From the NCBI GenBank assembly GCA_050015075.1, contig JBEKCB010000021.1, positions 24,303 through 88,302 of the forward strand: a DNA stretch of 64,000 nt, in the 5' to 3' direction. The stretch comes from Candidatus Brocadiia bacterium. GTDB taxonomy: Bacteria > Planctomycetota > Brocadiia > CAIUPP01. A model generated the notes under the pieces. That model saw only the letters and a program-made list of their open reading frames with translations, made no database searches and was not told where the DNA came from. A program made the position numbers and the translations under genes. This document shows, piece after piece, positions 49,338-58,769 of the stretch (the first letter of the stretch is position 1; every line of letters starts with the position of its first letter).

Positions 49338-51671
49338 TCAAGCCTCGGCGGTTGATCCGGAGCGCGGTGCAGCTTGACGCTCCGTGTGTGCAGGCGACGG
49401 AGCGGTCTGCGAAGGAGCCCCGCCGGCGGGCGCGGCTTTTTGCTGGACTTCGGGGCGGTGGAACCACCGGTCAAGGGTGCCGTTTGTCCACAGGACATAG
49501 CTCGTGACGGCCGCGGCGGCGAGCGCCAGGAGGATGACCCAGAGGGCGATCTTCGTCGTCTTCGACGCGGCGGCGTACGGGTCCTTGAGCATGCGGATGG
49601 AGCCCTTCGGCAGGTGAGCGGTCTTCGTGAGCGCCGCGCCGAACGGGATGTTGATCTTGACGCGGCCGTTGACGGCCCAGCCGTTCGCGTCGAGGATCGG
49701 CCCGAGGTTGCGCTTGCGCAGTTTGAACGCCGCGAGGATGACCGATACGGTGGAGATCACGACGAGGATGGCAAGGACCGCCAGCGGCATCTGCCACCAC
49801 GTCAGCTTGAAGAACTCCGCCAGGAGCGTGGCGATGGCGCCGCCGATGGCGCCGACGGCCAGGCCGACCGCGGCCAGAATGCCGACCATTTTCGCAATGT
49901 CAAATGGCGGTTTCTGCGGCGGCGGCTGCGCTGCGGCCGGCGTCGCGCCCGGCGCAGCAGGCGTTTGCAGCGTCGCCTGGGCAGCTTGCGTGGCGGCGGC
50001 CATTCTCTCCTGCGCGGCCTGGTCGCGCGCCGCAGCGGCCTTCTGCATCTGCTCGCCGATCAGCCGGCCGAGCCGCTTGTAGGGCGACAGGATCCCCTGC
50101 CAGATGCTGATCGGCTTCTCGATGATCTTCGTAATCGTCGCGTCCCAGTCCCGGCCCTGACGGTCGTAGAAAATGCCGTTGCGCCCGACCATGAGGTTGT
50201 CGGAATCGCCGCCGGTGAAGGCCGCCGCGATCTGGAGTTTCTCGGGGACGTCCTTGCGGGTGCAGTCGCAATAGGCCAGGTAGGTCTCGCTCAGGCCGGC
50301 GAGCGCGGCGTGTTTGGCGGGGTCCTCGACCCGCACGCAGAGGTCGCAACTGCGGCCGTCGAGATATAGCGTGCCGACCTGGAAAATGGCCTTGCGCCGC
50401 CCGCTGTAGAAGTCGCGGAAGGAGACGAAGTTGCGCAGGAGCACGATCAGGTCGCGGTGGTAACGGACCAGGCGGTCCACGACGACGATCTGGTTCATGG
50501 TGGCTTCGAGCGATTTGTCCCTGGCGATGGCGGCGGCGAGAAGGGCGCGGGAATCGCCGGCGAGGATCTCGCGGACGCGCGCGAGGCCGAGCTTCTCGAC
50601 CGGGGCGCCGGCCCGCGCGGCGAGCCACGCTTCGTAGGGGACGAATTTCTCGTTGATTTTCGCCCAGTCGTCGGGCGTCAGGCGCGGCGCTTGAGGCGCG
50701 ATCAGCGGGACGACCACCTGGTGATAGAGCTTGGCGAGCGCGAGCGTCCAGGCCGGGTTGACGCCCGCGAGGAGCGGCAGCGGACGGTCCGGCTCGATCC
50801 GCGAGAGCGGGAACCCGCTCATCTCGCCGCCCGACGGCGAAAGCTCCCTGGCGGCGATCGCCTGGTACTCCGATTCGGCGCGGTTGAGCGCGGCGGCGGC
50901 GCGGCTGTCGAACGCGGCCAGCCGGCAGCGCGCGAAGTAGTCGTCCACCTTCGACCGGACCGACTTGACCGCCTCATACGCGTCCGCGGTCGCGTCGCCC
51001 AGCGGCAGGATCGTCGCAGGCTCGTCTTCGGCTTTCGCGCGCCAGTCGGAGAACGCCCGGAGTTCGCCGAAGAACTGGTCGAGCCTGGCCTGCGTGACGC
51101 CGGGCACGCCGCTGCGGTCCATCTCGCCGCCGACGCAGGCGATAATGTCGGCGATGACGGCGCGGGCTGCGGCGTCGTCCACCGAATCGGGCGGGATGAC
51201 GCCGTCGCCGTTGAACTTCGTCTTGGCGAAGATCGCCGCCGTGTCGGTGGTGTCGGCGAGGCTGATCGCCGTGGCGTCGGGCTTGCCGAGGCTGGCGAGC
51301 ACCTGCTTGGCCGCCGCGAGCAGTTGCGCGCCCTCGGGCGAGGCGGCGCGGATGGAGGACAAGGGCAGCGTCTCGGAGCCCTGGAGGATCTCGACCGGAT
51401 CCTCGAGGACTTCGACGACCCAGGCGACCGCGGCGATGACCTCCGGCGCGCGGACGTGGCCGTCGTGGTCGGTGTCGAGCAGGTCGAGCGTCTTCGAATC
51501 GAACTCCAGGTCGTGCGTCGGGCAGCTTAGCGCCACCCAGAGTTTCTGGTCGAGGTCCTTGAGCGCGGCCAAGTCGGAGTTCTTGTCGAGCGTCACCTGG
51601 TCCACGCCGCCGGCGCGGAAGAATTTCCAGCGGTGCGCGGCGCGCGGCGCGGCGGAGTCCGATGCGTTCAT
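49338..51671 (-). CDS. Conserved hypothetical membrane protein with N-terminal EF-hand-like motif
   Basis: 'WKFFRAGGVDQV', EF-hand-like 'DTDHDGHVRAPE', 'VGRNGIFYDRQGRDWDA' and C-terminal TM helices. Confidence 0.8.
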   Translation of the reverse strand: MNASDSAAPRAAHRWKFFRAGGVDQVTLDKNSDLAALKDLDQKLWVALSCPTHDLEFDSKTLDLLDTDHDGHVRAPEVIAAVAWVVEVLEDPVEILQGSETLPLSSIRAASPEGAQLLAAAKQVLASLGKPDATAISLADTTDTAAIFAKTKFNGDGVIPPDSVDDAAARAVIADIIACVGGEMDRSGVPGVTQARLDQFFGELRAFSDWRAKAEDEPATILPLGDATADAYEAVKSVRSKVDDYFARCRLAAFDSRAAAALNRAESEYQAIAARELSPSGGEMSGFPLSRIEPDRPLPLLAGVNPAWTLALAKLYHQVVVPLIAPQAPRLTPDDWAKINEKFVPYEAWLAARAGAPVEKLGLARVREILAGDSRALLAAAIARDKSLEATMNQIVVVDRLVRYHRDLIVLLRNFVSFRDFYSGRRKAIFQVGTLYLDGRSCDLCVRVEDPAKHAALAGLSETYLAYCDCTRKDVPEKLQIAAAFTGGDSDNLMVGRNGIFYDRQGRDWDATITKIIEKPISIWQGILSPYKRLGRLIGEQMQKAAAARDQAAQERMAAATQAAQATLQTPAAPGATPAAAQPPPQKPPFDIAKMVGILAAVGLAVGAIGGAIATLLAEFFKLTWWQMPLAVLAILVVISTVSVILAAFKLRKRNLGPILDANGWAVNGRVKINIPFGAALTKTAHLPKGSIRMLKDPYAAASKTTKIALWVILLALAAAAVTSYVLWTNGTLDRWFHRPEVQQKAAPAGGAPSQTAPSPAHTERQAAPRSGSTAEA

Positions 51672-52922: not shown

Positions 52923-53585
52923 CTATTCGGGCTCTGCGGCCTTCGGCTTGTCGGTCCTGGGCTTGAGCCATTCCACCTGCCGGGCTTCGTAGTAGCCTTC
53001 GCTGACGTACACGAAGTGCGTCACGAAGACTTCATCGCCGAGGAGCATCGCGAGGACCGGCTTGTCGGCGTCGCGGCTGATGGCGCGCACGGGCGCCCCG
53101 ACGGCGGCCACCAGGGCGACCGGGCCCATGCCCAGGTTGCTCAACTGGCACGCGCTGGAATGGACCAGGCGGATCGTATAGACGGGGTTCCAGAAGCCGC
53201 GGACCTTCGCGGCGCCCGGCGCGGCGTTCATCTTGTTCTGGAGCGGGGTCACCACGTCCTGGTCGGCGCTCAGCACCGGCGCCCAGTTCGACAGGTCGCC
53301 GAGGTTGAACGGAGGGAGAGCGGCGATCTGCCGGACCGCCTCGGTGTGCAGGACGTCCTTCTGAGGCGCCAGGATGCGCTCGGCAATCGCGGTGGTCGCC
53401 GCTTCGAGTTCCTCACGGGTCATGTTGTCCACCTTGCCGATCAACTCGCGGTAAGCCGTCTGGCTGTAGTTCGCCCACAGATCGTCGAAGGTCATCACGG
53501 GTTTGGCGTCGTCGGCGGCCAGCGCGAGCCCGCACAGAACGACGCCCGCCGCAAGCGCCCACGCCGGCGGCCGATGGATTTTCAT
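52923..53585 (-). CDS. Secreted hypothetical protein
   Basis: GGAGG RBS; signal peptide ending 'ALA|AD'. Confidence 0.65.
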   Translation of the reverse strand: MKIHRPPAWALAAGVVLCGLALAADDAKPVMTFDDLWANYSQTAYRELIGKVDNMTREELEAATTAIAERILAPQKDVLHTEAVRQIAALPPFNLGDLSNWAPVLSADQDVVTPLQNKMNAAPGAAKVRGFWNPVYTIRLVHSSACQLSNLGMGPVALVAAVGAPVRAISRDADKPVLAMLLGDEVFVTHFVYVSEGYYEARQVEWLKPRTDKPKAAEPE

Positions 53586-53657
53586 CGCGGTTCCTCCGAA
53601 GTTCGGATTTGCCCGGTACGGAGGCGATCCCAATCGCCCCGCTGCGCCCCTGCGCGA

Positions 53658-55061
53658 TCAGCCCTTTGCGACGGCGCTGGATTCGAAGACCAGCCGGACG
53701 TGGCCGATCTCGATCTCGTCGCCCGGCCGCAGCGCAACGGAGCTGATCGGCCGCCCGTTGACTTGCGTGCCCAAGTGCCCGCCGAGATCGCGAAGCACGA
53801 AACGGCCTTCCTGGAGTTCGATCACGGCGTGCTCGCTGGAGACGCGGTGATCGTCAATGCAGACCTGGCTGTTCGGATCGCGGCCGATGCGGGTCTGCTT
53901 TCCGTCAATCTCGAAGAGCGCGCCGCGCGGCAGGCCGGCGGTCGCCACGAGCCGGGCGCGCGGCTGAGCCGCCGCGCCCTCCTGTCGGAGGCCGGCGTCG
54001 CGCGCGGCGGCGGAGACCGCGACGCCATGCCGCCGGAAGGCGTACCAGATTTCTTTGCGCAGGTCGCTCTGCACCACCGGCGCGGACTCGTAGTTGTCCA
54101 CCCACACCTGCAATTCGTAGGCAAGAGCGTTCTCGCGAAAATCCATCAGGTGCGCGGCCGGGGCCGGCCGCGTCAGGACGCCTTCCACGCGCGCGGCCGC
54201 TTCCAGCAGGGCATGCGCGGCGAGTCCGGGCGGCGTATCGTCCGCCACGGTGATGCAGATCGTCAGCAGGTGCAGCGAAGACGGCTGGTTGAAGTTCAGG
54301 ATAGGCGCCTGGACGATGACGCAGTTGGGGATCTCCACCAAGTCGCTCTGCCGGGTGCGCAGGCGCGTCGAGCGCCACCCGATCTCAATCACCTCGCCTT
54401 CGGCGTCACCGATCTGGACCCAGTCGCCGACTTCGAACAGCCGTTCGGCGCTGACCAGCACGCCGGACATCAGGTTGCCCAGCAGCGACTGGACGCCCAA
54501 CCCGATGACGAGGGTGACGATGCCGGAAGTGACAAAGATGGGCGTCAGGCTCAGGTCGGGAAAGGACCACATCAGCAGCAGGAACAGGCCGAGGAATCCC
54601 GCGAACAGCAGCACGAAGGTGCGGATCAGCGGCGGCAGGCCCGCGCGCGTGCGCTGGGCCTCCGAGGGAATCGCCGCCTTCGACACCAGGTACAGCAGAC
54701 TGACGAAGAGCATGAAAACGAACAGGAACCGGGCGAAGTGATACAGGTTCTCGACGCTCGAATGGTTCGCCTGCATCATTCCCAGCCAGACCGCTCCGCT
54801 CAACACGACGAGGATCGGCATGAAAATGGCGGGGCTCTTGAAGAGCTTGCGGCTCAGCAGCAGGCGCGTGATCAGGATGCCGGCAAGAAAAATGACCGTG
54901 GGCACGATGATCATCAGGACCGGCTCGTAGGGATTGCCGGACTGCACCGGCCCCTCAGCCGCTTTCTCCGCACCCTGAGCCAGGGCCACGCCGCCCTGCA
55001 GGGCCAGGGCGAGGACCGCCAAAACGGTCGCCGGCGTCGAAAGCACCGCGGAATCTCTCAT
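53658..55061 (-). CDS. MscS-family mechanosensitive channel with C-terminal FHA domain
   Basis: TM3 'VIGLGVQSLLGNLMSG', 'FEVGDWVQIG..GEVIEIGWRSTRLRT' and 'EIWYAFRRHGV'; FHA 'IGRDPNSQVCIDDHRVSSEHA...GTQVNG...LRPGDEIEIG'. Confidence 0.88.
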   Translation of the reverse strand: MRDSAVLSTPATVLAVLALALQGGVALAQGAEKAAEGPVQSGNPYEPVLMIIVPTVIFLAGILITRLLLSRKLFKSPAIFMPILVVLSGAVWLGMMQANHSSVENLYHFARFLFVFMLFVSLLYLVSKAAIPSEAQRTRAGLPPLIRTFVLLFAGFLGLFLLLMWSFPDLSLTPIFVTSGIVTLVIGLGVQSLLGNLMSGVLVSAERLFEVGDWVQIGDAEGEVIEIGWRSTRLRTRQSDLVEIPNCVIVQAPILNFNQPSSLHLLTICITVADDTPPGLAAHALLEAAARVEGVLTRPAPAAHLMDFRENALAYELQVWVDNYESAPVVQSDLRKEIWYAFRRHGVAVSAAARDAGLRQEGAAAQPRARLVATAGLPRGALFEIDGKQTRIGRDPNSQVCIDDHRVSSEHAVIELQEGRFVLRDLGGHLGTQVNGRPISSVALRPGDEIEIGHVRLVFESSAVAKG

Positions 55062-55080
55062 GCCGCATCCTTGAAGACGA

Positions 55081-56523
55081 TCACCGGTCCGCGTTCAGGC
55101 GCTTGCGCGCGGCCGCTGCACGCGGATCGTCGGGGAAGTCACGGACAAAGCGCGCGTACATCTCCTGCGCGGCGGCCTTGTCCTTGAGCTTGCCATTGTA
55201 GAGCTCGGCCGCCTGGAACAGCGGGTCCGCGCCGTTGGCCGGCTCGCGCTCGGAAAGGCGGACGAGAGCGTCCGTCGCCGTCTTCCAGTCATTCAGGTCC
55301 GGCTGCTGACAAACCTCCGCGATGAGCTGCAGGGCCGGCGACACCTGCTGGCTCTTGGGATAGTCCGAGATGAGCTTGTTCAGCTTATTCACCAACTGCT
55401 GCTGCTCGGGGGCGTAGTAGCTCGAGGAGAATGTCCCGTGCTTCTTCAAGGCCTTCCACTCGAGCTGGCAGTTCTCCATCCGCTCGGCGAGGAGCGCGTC
55501 CTCTTCGGCCTGCGCGTCTGCGGCTGCGGCCGCTGCGGCGGTTGCCGCGGCGCTCGGAGGGGTTGGGGCGTGGCGCCTGTGAATGAGAAACGCGGCCGCG
55601 ATGGCGATCACCAGGACGGCCGCGCCTCCGGCGATCGCGTAGCGCCGCGCCAGGGAACGCCAGTCACGGACCGGCGTCGGACCGGATTTGCTCTGGGGCT
55701 TCAAGTGCCGGCCGGTAATCCGGCCGAGATCGGCCTTGATTTCGGCGGCGCTCTGGTAGCGGTCGGCCGGCGATTGCGCCAGGCATTTTTTGACGACCTC
55801 GTCGAACCCGATCGGCGCCTGGTGGTTGACAAAACTGGGCAGCTTGAAATGACCGATCGGCAGACTGCCGGTCAGCAGCTCGTAAAGCACGACGCCAAAA
55901 GAGAATATGTCGGTGTGGACCGTGACCGTGTGCGAGTTGAGACGCTGTTCCGGCGACATATAATTGATGGTGCCGAGCGCGACGTTTTCCCTCGTGAGCG
56001 TGGAGAGTTCCGAGCCGGTCGCCTCGATCGCCGCAATGCCGAAGTCGGAAATCTTCGCGCGCCCGGTCTCGTTGTCCACGAGGATGTTCGAGGGCTTCAG
56101 GTCGCGATGGATGACCCCTTTCGCGTGCGCGTACTCGAGCGCATCGCAGATCTGCACAGCGTAGTCGAGCGCCTGGACGACGGAAATCTTCCCTTCCCGG
56201 ATCAGCCGGTCGAGGCTCACGCCATTCACGAATTCCATGACGATGAAAAGCGTTTCGCCCTCTTTGCCGCGGTCAATGACCTGGACAATGTTGGGGTGAT
56301 TCAGTTGCGCGGCGATATTCGCCTCGCGGTCGAACCGCGCCAGCAGTTCCTCCGTGCGGGCGAACCGCTCCGGCAGCACCTTGATCGCCACGGTGCGGTT
56401 GAGCGACGGCTGCAGCCCTTTGTAGACGATGGCCATGCCGCCCTGGCCGATCTGCTCGAGCATCTCGTAATGCCCCAGCATTCGCGTTGCCGGCCGCTCG
56501 GCGTTGGTCTGCTCTTCCACCAT
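55081..56523 (-). CDS. Hanks-type Ser/Thr protein kinase with TM helix and periplasmic TPR-like domain
   Basis: 'IGQGGMAIVY', 'VAIK', 'HRDLKPSN', 'DFG' and 'YMSPEQ'; TM 'YAIAGGAAVLVIAIAAAFLI'; BamD/YbgF-like helical tail. Confidence 0.93.
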   Translation of the reverse strand: MVEEQTNAERPATRMLGHYEMLEQIGQGGMAIVYKGLQPSLNRTVAIKVLPERFARTEELLARFDREANIAAQLNHPNIVQVIDRGKEGETLFIVMEFVNGVSLDRLIREGKISVVQALDYAVQICDALEYAHAKGVIHRDLKPSNILVDNETGRAKISDFGIAAIEATGSELSTLTRENVALGTINYMSPEQRLNSHTVTVHTDIFSFGVVLYELLTGSLPIGHFKLPSFVNHQAPIGFDEVVKKCLAQSPADRYQSAAEIKADLGRITGRHLKPQSKSGPTPVRDWRSLARRYAIAGGAAVLVIAIAAAFLIHRRHAPTPPSAAATAAAAAAADAQAEEDALLAERMENCQLEWKALKKHGTFSSSYYAPEQQQLVNKLNKLISDYPKSQQVSPALQLIAEVCQQPDLNDWKTATDALVRLSEREPANGADPLFQAAELYNGKLKDKAAAQEMYARFVRDFPDDPRAAAARKRLNADR

Positions 56524-56595
56524 CGTTTCCCCTGACGGACGCGCAGGCAGGCCGGCTACTCCCGGCCGACACAACCCGCTTGCGCCCCTCTTACT

Positions 56596-56764
56596 ATTAT
56601 CCGCCCGCCCGGCGGCGTGTCAAGCTTCTTCCGGAATGCGCGCATGGCCTCAGGGCGCGCGGGGCCGCGCGCGGACGCATCGTTTCCCAGAACAGCGCGA
56701 GGAAGCCCGTCACACGGCTCTGTCGCTGCGGGCAATTGACAAGCGGCGGTCTAACGGTCACAAT
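56596..56764. promoter_or_regulatory. Divergent sigma70 promoters for the kinase operon (-) and the DUF2059 gene (+)
   Basis: Minus strand: TTGACA-N16-GATAAT (56623-56596). Plus strand: TTGACA-N17-CACAAT (56736-56764). Confidence 0.55.
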
Positions 56765-57377: not shown

Positions 57378-58214
57378 ATGTGGGCCCTCGGCGTCTATGC
57401 TGGAGAATCCCCGCTCAAGTTGCGACCGGCGCCGAAGGCGGCCAACCCGGTGTTGACGCCTGCGGATGTCACGGATATGAAGGTGGATGCCGTCGCCCAC
57501 CCCTTCATGGTGATCAAGGACAAGCGGTATTACGTGTACTTCACAGCCAAGGACCTGAAATCCGACAAGGGCGGCATCGCGCTGGCGGAGAGCGGCGACG
57601 GCGTGAAGTGGAAATTCCGGCGGACCGTCATCCGCGAGCCGTTCGTTCAGTCGTACCCGTACGTCTTCGAATGGCGCAACGAGTACTACCTGATTCCGGA
57701 AGCCCACACGGAGACGTCGCTCCGGATGTACAAGGCGACGGCGTTTCCGGACGAGTGGAAGTGCGTGGGAAGCCTTTTAGAGGGCGACGTGCCTTTCAGA
57801 AGCCCGACGCTGGCGCACTACAAGGACCTGTGGTGGCTGTTCACGTCGCTTGCCGGGGACGACACGCTGCGCCTCTTCTACGCTCCCGATTTCAAAGGGC
57901 CCTGGAAGTTACACCCGCTCAGCCCCATCGTGAAAAAGGACTTGCGTAGCGCCCGGCCCGCCGGCCGGCCTTTCCTGCTCGACGGAGCTTTTTACCGCTT
58001 GGGGCAGGACTGTTACCCGACCTACGGGCGAGCCGTACGCGCGTGCCGGATCACCGACATCAGCGCCACGACGTACGCCGAGGAGGTGCTGGAGACGCCC
58101 GTGGTCGAAGCCTCGGGAAGCGGCTGGAACTCCCAGGGGATGCACCACGTTGATGCGCAGCGGACGGCTGCGGGACAGTGGATCGCGGTGGTGGACGCGG
58201 TTAGCGCGCAGTGA
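57378..58214 (+). CDS. Beta-propeller glycosylase-like protein (GINT1 N-terminal/GH43-like)
   Basis: 'NPVLT', 'AHPF', 'SGDGVKW', 'SYPYVF', 'GPWKLHPLSP', 'ARPAG', 'QDC..YG' and 'GMHHVD'. It may be 5'-truncated. Confidence 0.75.
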   Translation: MWALGVYAGESPLKLRPAPKAANPVLTPADVTDMKVDAVAHPFMVIKDKRYYVYFTAKDLKSDKGGIALAESGDGVKWKFRRTVIREPFVQSYPYVFEWRNEYYLIPEAHTETSLRMYKATAFPDEWKCVGSLLEGDVPFRSPTLAHYKDLWWLFTSLAGDDTLRLFYAPDFKGPWKLHPLSPIVKKDLRSARPAGRPFLLDGAFYRLGQDCYPTYGRAVRACRITDISATTYAEEVLETPVVEASGSGWNSQGMHHVDAQRTAAGQWIAVVDAVSAQ

Positions 58215-58370
58215 GCGGGGACTGGTTCTTCATATCCTAGAATCGGCGAACAATCACCTGATTATTGGCTGTTTTTTAGGGGCAACCATGGACTGTGCAC
58301 AGCTATTTAATGGCGGGTGACTGCTCTAACGATTAAGGTTCCAAATGAGCGTGTAAACAGGGGCAATACG

Positions 58371-58769
58371 ATGAACTGGGGTAATACGCCTTTTCTGTTT
58401 AGCGACAAGCCACACACTATTGCCACTAGCGATGACTTCCTGTTAGTGATCCCTCAAGGCATTCTTACGAAACAACAGCTTCTTGCCCACTACGCAAGCG
58501 CAGGCTCATTTCCATCGTATTTCGGGCATAACTGGGATGCTCTGGAAGAGTGTTTGGGAGATTTGTCATGGATAAGGCCACAGCGCATCCTCATTGTCCA
58601 CGAGGATTTACCTTTAGCGAATGATGACCAACAGTGCCGTGTCTATCTGGATATATTGGCGGGGGCGGTCGAACTCTGGAACGGCGACAAGAGTCACGGG
58701 ATGTTGGTCGTTTTTCCTTCCACTTTTTTAGCCGCAGTCTCCCCGTTAGTCAGCAAAAATCGAAGATAG
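58371..58769 (+). CDS. Barstar-family protein
   Basis: 'FPSYFGHNWDALEECLGDLSW'; AT-rich; no barnase-like gene adjacent. Confidence 0.85.
   Translation: MNWGNTPFLFSDKPHTIATSDDFLLVIPQGILTKQQLLAHYASAGSFPSYFGHNWDALEECLGDLSWIRPQRILIVHEDLPLANDDQQCRVYLDILAGAVELWNGDKSHGMLVVFPSTFLAAVSPLVSKNRR

Follow-up and report, generated by a model that had tools for sequence, protein, structure and literature searches.

MscS-like channels are usually regarded as tension-gated safety valves. In this paper, we focus on one channel of this family that does not sit alone: its gene lies beside that of a Ser/Thr kinase, and its protein ends in an FHA domain. What are these two doing next to each other? The stretch that holds them, which we call the window, is 64,000 nucleotides (nt) of DNA from Candidatus Brocadiia bacterium (NCBI GenBank assembly GCA_050015075.1, contig JBEKCB010000021.1, positions 24,303 to 88,302 of the forward strand), and all positions given below without a contig or locus name are counted from its first letter.

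Several described systems come close. In the pknF-Rv1747 operon, two genes encode a kinase and an FHA-bearing ABC transporter, and the kinase is a positive regulator of the transporter (PMC3138270, PMC3908365; these and the other papers given by number are cited from the available excerpts of their text); PknF phosphorylates Rv1747, and the FHA domains of the transporter have been modeled on the phosphorylated activation loop of the kinase (PMC8339232). The pocket of the FHA protein GarA binds phosphothreonine (pThr) of the PknB activation loop (PMC8339232, citing Wagner 2019). In mycobacterial MviN, phosphorylation of a pseudokinase domain by PknB recruits the FHA domain of FhaA and so regulates the pathway of the transporter (PMC12599244). 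Finally, a 2026 review of MscS-like gating names as the unusual case the cyclic-nucleotide-binding (bCNG) forms, which gave Escherichia coli no protection against downshock (PMC13591265).

Here, we show that the kinase and the MscS-FHA channel form a real and conserved unit, undescribed as far as we have searched. We propose, with a probability of about 0.5, that the two work as one: an MscS-type channel with a tethered FHA domain and a membrane-anchored partner of the kinase fold, coupled by docking to phosphorylation.

Results

The gene pair in the window. The parts of the arrangement are as follows.

53658..55061, minus strand: gene for the MscS-FHA channel, 467 amino acids (aa) (list of open reading frames [ORFs], Pfam, AlphaFold2, Foldseek)
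55062..55080, minus strand: intergenic spacer of 19 nt with an AGGA ribosome-binding-like site seven bases before the channel ATG (sequence inspection)
55081..56523, minus strand: gene for a receptor-type Hanks Ser/Thr kinase, 480 aa (ORF list and Pfam Pkinase, 4.4e-53)
56596..56623, minus strand: sigma-70-like promoter match, TTGACA-16-GATAAT, 11 of 12 positions, about 73 nt upstream of the kinase ATG (consensus match only)

A preliminary description of this stretch had claimed an intact Hanks kinase, with a transmembrane (TM) helix and a TPR-like outer domain, 19 nt upstream of an MscS-FHA gene, and on all of this the ORFs, Pfam, and AlphaFold2 agree. The ATG at 56523 gives a kinase of 480 aa, with a TTG at 56574 as an alternative start. 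As in the PknF-Rv1747 type, a membrane kinase gene here adjoins the gene of a membrane transport protein that bears FHA; in the window, both are on one strand, with 19 nt between them. A promoter-like site stands only 5' of the kinase (the scanned region holds four sigma-70-like matches, with 0.5 expected from shuffles), and on the minus strand, no terminator-like site lies between kinase and channel.

Conservation of the pairing. How far does this arrangement reach? In each of the 24 informative loci, of which the window is one, a gene for a kinase fold and a gene for an MscS-FHA protein are adjacent or fused, a count that overstates independence because the loci are kin, found via one peptide pattern or one query each. 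These loci are spread over Planctomycetota-type metagenome contigs, one genome of the Myxococcota, and nine of the Acidobacteriota, and they come in two gene orders: one group has the kinase upstream of the channel, and in the other group it is downstream and overlaps the stop codon of the channel. The preliminary description had named beforehand, among the outcomes that would refute its proposal, that the pairing is not kept in other genomes; in these three phyla, it is kept.

An ortholog was present in only three of the 132 species genomes of the Planctomycetota class, namely that of the window (G000), G039, and G010, and all three link kinase and channel. The same-genus genome G001 (91% complete) gave no ortholog match at E ≤1e-20, and 400 further sampled genomes of the phylum gave no match that extended into the FHA part. 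G010 has one ORF of 798 aa with Pkinase, MscS, and FHA, which corresponds to P0016 (a Candidatus Brocadiaceae metagenome-assembled genome by its NCBI label). In G039, the kinase is followed by one inserted lipoprotein-like ORF and then by the channel; the insertion (L110:10525-11175(-)) encodes 216 aa with a coiled coil and an Ala/Pro-rich tail and is found in no other locus.

Metagenome contigs provided 13 loci with the motif [LF]TP[VM]FVTSG, and in 11 of the 13, a kinase ortholog lies directly upstream on the same strand or is fused (tblastn), with matches that in most cases extend over the outer domain; contig loci L115 and L116 end before the upstream region and are outside the informative count. 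The motif was taken from a 12-sequence subset (the full 19-segment TM alignment has no sufficiently conserved stretch), and the scan could detect only loci that carry it. In several of the contig loci, the kinase stop and the channel start overlap or are 3-10 nt apart. One metagenome locus holds between the two genes a small ORF of the four-helix-bundle type (L124:100-720), similar to those that intervening sequences of 23S rRNA encode. A scan of genome contigs with generic MscS motifs was rejected as a source of relatives: 80 loci among the matches listed were ordinary MscS genes of at most 35% identity.

An exhaustive HMMER search of 1.84 billion representatives added to the window's own subfamily A a second group of MscS-FHA proteins, subfamily B, with 29-40% identity to the window protein over the full alignment, and 11 of the 11 tested contain FHA and MscS domains (Pfam). 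Their phyla were placed by searches of Myxococcota and Acidobacteriota samples only, where they occur in 1 of 301 and 10 of 301 (11 places) genomes, respectively. In the Myxococcota genome (G787), the MscS-FHA gene begins 20 nt after the end of a kinase gene whose product has 49% identity to the kinase of the window. In the Acidobacteriota, a kinase-fold gene stands immediately 3' of the channel in all nine loci fetched (two short G825 contigs, uninformative or not fetched, are outside this count), and in the six with a complete partner ORF, the partner overlaps the channel stop codon by a few bases.

No other neighbor is conserved across the loci compared. One candidate for a conserved third gene, a PALP enzyme gene 5' of the pair in five closely related acidobacterial loci, was rejected as local synteny. 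Because the pairing is found in three phyla, in two gene orders, and as a fusion, a functional link is hard to deny, and because adjacency recurs in every informative related locus, it is not chance. We regard it as very probable that the kinase-fold and channel genes are functionally linked; the pairing itself is obligate across the lineages compared.

The channel. The features of the channel protein, from its N terminus to its C terminus, are these.

54960..55034, minus strand: N-terminal hydrophobic helix, residues 10-34, a probable signal peptide, putatively cleaved at ALA-QG (AlphaFold2 and alignment)
54444..54926, minus strand: five predicted TM helices, residues 46-70, 77-98, 104-130, 144-166, and the pore helix 173-206 (AlphaFold2, alignments)
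54003..54443, minus strand: MscS cytoplasmic beta and alpha/beta domains (the "cage"), residues 207-353 (Pfam, AlphaFold2, Foldseek)
53967..54002, minus strand: flexible linker, residues 354-365, with a predicted local distance difference test (pLDDT) value below 50 at 354-363 (AlphaFold2)
53670..53966, minus strand: FHA domain, residues 366-464, with G393-R394 and S408-x-x-H411 kept and GGHLGT at 427-432 in place of SxNGT (Pfam, GarA alignment, fold)

By Pfam, by sequence, and by fold, this protein has the hallmark of the MscS family, a pore-lining helix followed by the beta and alpha/beta domains of the cage. Pfam finds MS_channel_2nd at residues 193-258 (5e-19, 68.6 bits against a cut-off of 20.2) and MS_channel_3rd at residues 266-348 (4.2e-12, 46.8 bits against a cut-off of 21), MscM, YnaI, and MscS match at E values from 1e-11 to 1e-14 with the pore helix aligned, and the AlphaFold2 model (mean pLDDT 77.0), which consists of the N-terminal helix, five TM helices, cage domains, linker, and FHA sandwich, matches the MscS structures 7onl, 5aji, and 2oau with E of about 1e-15 (Foldseek). 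YnaI also has five TM helices, the same count as the window channel. A family-specific motif, WSFP-x-L-x-LTP-x-FVTSG, sits within the TM region, and the cytoplasmic loop between TM3 and TM4 contains T138 in an "RTR" sequence that the model leaves below a pLDDT of 50 at residues 135-138. Automated annotations label MscS-FHA proteins "small-conductance mechanosensitive channel."

On which side of the membrane does the FHA domain lie? The model puts it in the cytoplasm because, behind five TM helices, the cage is inside the cell, and the kinase domain is predicted to be on that same side. The channel is presumably a heptamer, with seven FHA domains on flexible tethers under the cage.

The next-nearest relatives are MscS channels of the bCNG type, with a C-terminal cyclic nucleotide monophosphate (cNMP)-binding domain (MS_channel plus cNMP_binding in P0101, P0102, P0140, and P0191 by Pfam scan and in P0027 and P0028 by precomputed Pfam). 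The window channel has no cNMP_binding match in Pfam, and its FHA domain occupies the equivalent C-terminal position. A FastTree tree built on 213 core columns has subfamily A as monophyletic (support 1.0) and sister to a Myxococcota-type pair, with the FHA and cNMP forms interleaved in a joint clade of support 0.79; eight of the "cNMP" tips are labeled by length and match range, and the rooting is weak, so that no order of events is drawn from the tree. The interleaving suggests that the C-terminal regulatory domain has been exchanged within one MscS lineage.

The FHA domain. The match to FHA in Pfam covers residues 390-453 (8.9e-18, 64.9 bits against a cut-off of 20.7), and AlphaFold2 builds an FHA sandwich at residues 366-464 with pLDDT 84-91. 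Its nearest sequence match of solved structure is GarA (3.8e-16), and GarA/OdhI FHA structures superimpose on it with a root-mean-square deviation (rmsd) of 1.1-1.3 Å at about 40% identity (Foldseek). The fold matches include 6i2p as well as 6i2r and 8p5x, in which the GarA/OdhI FHA is bound to KGD/OdhA, and the Rv1747 FHA structure 6cah matches with E of 1.6e-6.

The motif set of FHA domains is named in PMC8339232 as GR, SRxH, and SxNG. G393, R394, S408, and H411 of the window protein are invariant across subfamilies A and B. The gapless alignment with GarA bears out what the preliminary description had seen here, which was that GR and SxxH are kept and that the "GHLGT" deviation is real: GarA has GSLNGT where the window has GGHLGT.

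The kinase. The features of the kinase, also in protein order, are these.

55711..56469, minus strand: kinase domain, residues 19-271, with K48, H139-R140-D141, N146, and D160-F161-G162 intact (ortholog alignments)
55993..56001, minus strand: activation-loop T175-L176-T177, putatively bound as pThr by the FHA domain (the same in each of 11 unfused orthologs)
55576..55659, minus strand: single predicted TM helix, residues 289-316 (AlphaFold2 model)
55087..55548, minus strand: predicted extracytoplasmic all-helical TPR-like domain, residues 326-479 (AlphaFold2: seven helices, pLDDT 88-93)

Pfam matches Pkinase at residues 19-225 (4.4e-53), and in the alignment, the catalytic motifs are complete: a GQGGMA Gly-rich loop, K48 of VAIK, D141 of HRD, N146, D160 of DFG, and S190-P191-E192. 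K48, HRD, DFG, and SPE are invariant in 11 of 11 orthologs. The kinase of the window organism is, to judge from these motifs, most likely catalytically competent. A fold search with the whole kinase model, of which only the matches for the kinase domain are reported, found as the closest structure the kinase domain of Mycobacterium tuberculosis PknB (1mru_A; Z 28.5, rmsd 2.3 Å over 241 aligned residues, 40% identity). The model (mean pLDDT 76.4) continues from the kinase domain through a disordered juxtamembrane stretch (residues 273-291) to the TM helix and the outer helices. The outer domain scores 23.9 bits against TPR_6 (residues 435-465), under the 26.3-bit cut-off, and the Myxococcota ortholog passes with 40.2 bits; "TPR-like," for which Pfam and secondary structure speak, is a fair but not proven name. 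Relatives of the outer domain came to two matches, both TPR_6 kinases and too few to tell whether it occurs in this module only.

The fused form and the predicted pseudokinases. P0016 (770 aa; L111:9465-11861(-) and L112) is a natural single-chain fusion of kinase, MscS channel, and FHA domain. In it, the kinase TM helix stands in for the N-terminal helix of the channel, and because of this replacement, the topology would be preserved. The fused kinase domain reads HGN for HRD and DFA for DFG. Every catalytic motif is intact in the Myxococcota kinase and in the 11 kinases of subfamily A that are not fused.

The acidobacterial partners differ, too. They are about 305 aa long, with one C-terminal TM helix as a tail anchor and no outer domain, and six of them score between 6e-17 and 6e-36 against Pkinase, above the cut-off. 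The HRD Asp is absent in five of the six complete ones (HGC, CEG, HGC, CEG, and HGS), and the same five have neither DFG (EPG, DVG, EPG, DVG, and DAA) nor a Gly-rich loop; the partner at L140 retains HRD and DFG. The partner ORFs of L142, L143, and L147 are short, by frameshift, assembly error, or real truncation, and are outside this motif count. The fused partner and these five acidobacterial ones look like pseudokinases. The Thr equivalent to T175 is present in 12 of 12 aligned sequences, the fused form and the predicted pseudokinases included. Tail-anchored proteins of the kinase fold form a family in L140-L148 (e.g., L144:7997-8914(+) and L146:4944-5861(-)), with decayed motifs.

The preliminary description had supposed that a periplasmic signal activates the kinase. 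As a principle common to the family, this idea fails: a periplasmic domain is missing from the fused lineage and from the acidobacterial partners, and so, in most of these, is the catalytic Asp.

Surroundings and genome. Downstream of the pair lie a 236-aa ORF at 52923-53633 (-) and a 777-aa ORF at 49338-51671 (-), neither with a Pfam match, the latter hydrophobic in its C-terminal part. A wider operon made up of the 236-aa ORF, a DUF481 porin-like protein, and the 777-aa protein was considered and rejected, none of them standing beside the pair at other loci. On the other side, a barstar-like ORF at 58317-58769 (+) (Barstar, 1.4e-16) has no recognizable barnase-type gene adjoining it, and its upstream neighbor, the ORF at 57378-58214, is GINT1_N-like and weakly GH43-like.

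The genome of the window has 23 Pkinase and 20 FHA matches in 4.64 Mb. Four of its open frames match both FHA and Pkinase (C5:15840-16880, C5:22148-23284, C15:98540-99772, and C17:19186-20805) and look like FHA-kinase fusions. Its MscS-family genes number only two, and the other one is at C3:51154-51384 in a 428-aa open frame. DNA near-identical to positions 53400-56700 of the window is found in many peat metagenome runs from 2018-2025 and in one wetland run; the source organism appears to be a recurrent inhabitant of peat.

Discussion

How might a kinase and a channel of this kind work together? In the reading that we prefer, in which they are one unit coupled by docking to phosphorylation, the window kinase would autophosphorylate its activation loop at T175/T177 as PknB does, possibly under the control of the TPR-like outer domain. 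The FHA domains of the channel, each within a few nanometers of the membrane, would then dock on pT175/pT177, a site that we propose because the FHA domain is GarA-like and the kinase is PknB-like. Docking would either gather kinase domains round the cage or let the kinase phosphorylate the channel, and the behavior of the channel (its gating threshold, its inactivation, or its clustering) might be altered in consequence. In the pseudokinase lineages, another kinase may place the phosphate, as PknB does for MviN, or docking may be independent of phosphate. These steps do not all deserve the same trust. By analogy with the described pairs, we think the chances evenly balanced that the FHA domain docks on a pThr of its partner, and an effect of docking on gating is speculative. 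It is possible, although we are doubtful of it, that MscS-FHA proteins with their obligate kinase or pseudokinase "beta-subunit" are an unrecognized class of channel complex, in which the probability that an MscS-type pore is open would be set directly by pThr that the FHA domain reads.

A number of our own results weigh against coupling through phosphorylation, and it is best to have them in one place. The operon is a prediction from the arrangement of the DNA, and the kinship of the 24 loci goes so far that L111 and L112 encode a nearly identical protein. The neighborhoods of the compared loci hold no conserved phosphatase (e.g., PP2C). In the alignments, no phospho-acceptor of the channel is conserved across subfamilies A and B; T138 in the RTR loop was considered as a general phosphosite and rejected, being conserved in subfamily A only. 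The predicted pseudokinases cannot phosphorylate themselves, which makes a phosphate-independent complex a real alternative.

Then there is the third FHA motif. The window has G-H-L-G for SxNG, with the Ser lost as well, and peptide binding is perhaps weakened or altered as a result. The position of the SxNG Asn is Asn in none of 24 subfamily A proteins (P0025, in which an apparent frameshift has cost the FHA domain, is excluded), in 1 of 10 subfamily B proteins, and in none of 16 sequences in a second set that overlaps the first 24; the other FHA matches of the same genome keep it in 13 of 19. By these alignments, the deviation appears to be a trait of the whole MscS-FHA clade and not of the window alone. 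In work on the FHA1 domain of Rad53, this Asn is said to hold the peptide backbone. The picture, if that role applies here, would be of a domain that keeps the residues that touch phosphate and has lost the one that holds the backbone, and pThr binding by the window FHA domain is uncertain. A complex prediction of kinase residues 1-290 with FHA residues 362-467 (score 0.00, mark 0.32), by a method that cannot place a phosphate, speaks neither for nor against docking.

Of the other explanations, the one that survives best does without the phosphate altogether. The kinase fold would be a structural auxiliary subunit of a constitutive complex, the FHA domain would bind it, or another protein, without pThr, as GarA binds metabolic enzymes, and kinase activity would be an add-on meant for other substrates. 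One can see the appeal of this idea when the SxNG Asn is lost throughout the clade, when the fused partner has HGN and DFA and five of six complete acidobacterial partners are without HRD Asp, DFG, and Gly-rich loop, when the acidobacterial partners are short, tail-anchored, and devoid of a sensor domain, and when the fold matches include a GarA/OdhI FHA on KGD/OdhA (6i2r, 8p5x). But R394 and S408, which contact the phosphate, are invariant in both subfamilies together with the structural Gly and His, and this is not expected if phosphate binding had been abandoned. The activation-loop Thr is retained even in the pseudokinases, and the 11 unfused kinases of subfamily A and the Myxococcota one are all catalytically complete by motif. 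We consider a constitutive complex unlikely, if worth keeping in mind.

Could information flow the other way? The MscS-like protein would sense tension or crowding and, through its FHA domains, control the clustering or activity of the kinase and thereby the phosphorylation of other targets. PknB-type kinases are activated by dimerization, and seven FHA domains in a heptamer could gather kinase domains; the genome, moreover, has just one MscS-family gene besides that of the channel. That bCNG relatives left E. coli unprotected against downshock (PMC13591265) is a hint of functions besides that of a safety valve. A relay of this kind could not work by phosphorylation in the lineages with predicted pseudokinase and fused partners, however, and the active kinases own an outer domain that resembles an input module. 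A reversed flow seems to us distinctly unlikely.

A simpler thought is that the channel is a plain substrate: the FHA domain would do no more than bring in the kinase, in the manner of GarA and Rv1747, and regulation would come from phosphorylation of a channel residue, for which T138 is the candidate. The T-R of its RTR loop is invariant in 19 aligned subfamily A segments, and the loop is cytoplasmic and disordered in the model and is the counterpart of the loop between TM1 and TM2 in E. coli MscS, which contacts the cage. PknF, for its part, phosphorylates the Rv1747 transporter (PMC8339232). This explanation is very unlikely, given that subfamily B does not conserve the Thr of the loop, that the linker from cage to FHA domain has no conserved Ser or Thr, and that pseudokinase partners are unable to phosphorylate anything. 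Last, that the two genes are unrelated neighbors by chance is hardly credible, for although a genome so rich in kinase (23) and FHA (20) matches should yield some coincidences, the synteny (24 of 24 informative loci adjacent or fused, three phyla, two gene orders, start/stop overlaps in several loci, and no other neighbor conserved) contradicts it.

Is the unit new? The preliminary description knew of no characterized MscS-FHA protein, and the full-text literature that we searched likewise contains no description of one. The unit of MscS-FHA channel and kinase is undescribed in that literature, which is the open part of it in excerpt; subscription papers, supplements, and annotation pages are outside this scope, and a passing mention there is possible. 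The available excerpts of PMC2754498 describe no MscS-FHA architecture. In term searches, FHA, forkhead, phosphoryl-, and kinase were absent from the main text of the 2026 review of MscS-like gating, and mechanosensitive, MscS, and channel were absent from a 2025 review of bacterial pseudokinases, which does not name the acidobacterial pseudokinase family either. The MscS-FHA architecture is surely visible in domain databases.

Why should anyone care? A family of channels paired with kinases would join Hanks-kinase signaling and mechanosensitive channels, two large bacterial systems so far unconnected, and would give bacterial pseudokinases a new context. If MscS-FHA proteins and their partners are indeed an unrecognized class of channel complex, with a pore set by pThr, no bacterial channel before it would have been gated or licensed by Ser/Thr phosphorylation, and for solving a structure, the single-chain fusion would offer a ready-made sample. 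The carriers are bacteria of peat, soil, and sediment, where the water table and osmotic conditions swing, which makes the regulated release of solutes a plausible physiology.

Comparison with Known Systems

In logic, the nearest characterized system is pknF-Rv1747, in which two genes also encode a Hanks kinase and a transport protein with cytoplasmic FHA, both of them in the membrane. Rv1747 is an ABC exporter, which the window protein, a channel of the MscS family, is not; Rv1747 has two N-terminal FHA domains, whereas the window channel has one at the C terminus of each subunit and presumably seven per channel; and the window FHA domain is without the SxNG Asn, while some MscS-FHA lineages have a predicted pseudokinase or a fusion in place of an active partner. 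MviN, which is MurJ-like and with FhaA is the nearest system for the pseudokinase variants, resembles the fused and acidobacterial forms in joining a membrane transporter to an intracellular pseudokinase domain. Its FHA protein is, however, a separate polypeptide, its transporter is a flippase homolog, its phosphosite is in the pseudokinase's C-terminal tail and not in an activation loop, and its pseudokinase family, ActPs3, is a different one.

GarA/OdhI with PknB/PknG provides the likeness of the parts: GarA/OdhI is the closest solved FHA, and the window kinase is nearest to the PknB kinase domain. GarA itself is small and soluble, regulates metabolic enzymes, and bears a phospho-switch peptide at its N terminus, whereas the window FHA domain is the C terminus of a channel and has no such peptide. 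With E. coli MscS, YnaI, and MscM, the window channel has in common the pore helix and the beta and alpha/beta domains, to which it adds the FHA domain, the family-specific TM motifs, and the partner gene. The bCNG channels, the nearest known system in channel type, are built on the same multi-TM MscS core and carry their regulatory domain where the window channel carries its own, at the C terminus; in the window, that domain is not a binder of small molecules but an FHA domain, a reader of proteins or phosphopeptides, and it comes with an obligate partner gene for a kinase fold. The kinase and MscS-FHA channel are, then, a new combination, a member neither of the pknF-Rv1747 type nor of the bCNG type, in which the parts are all of known kinds.

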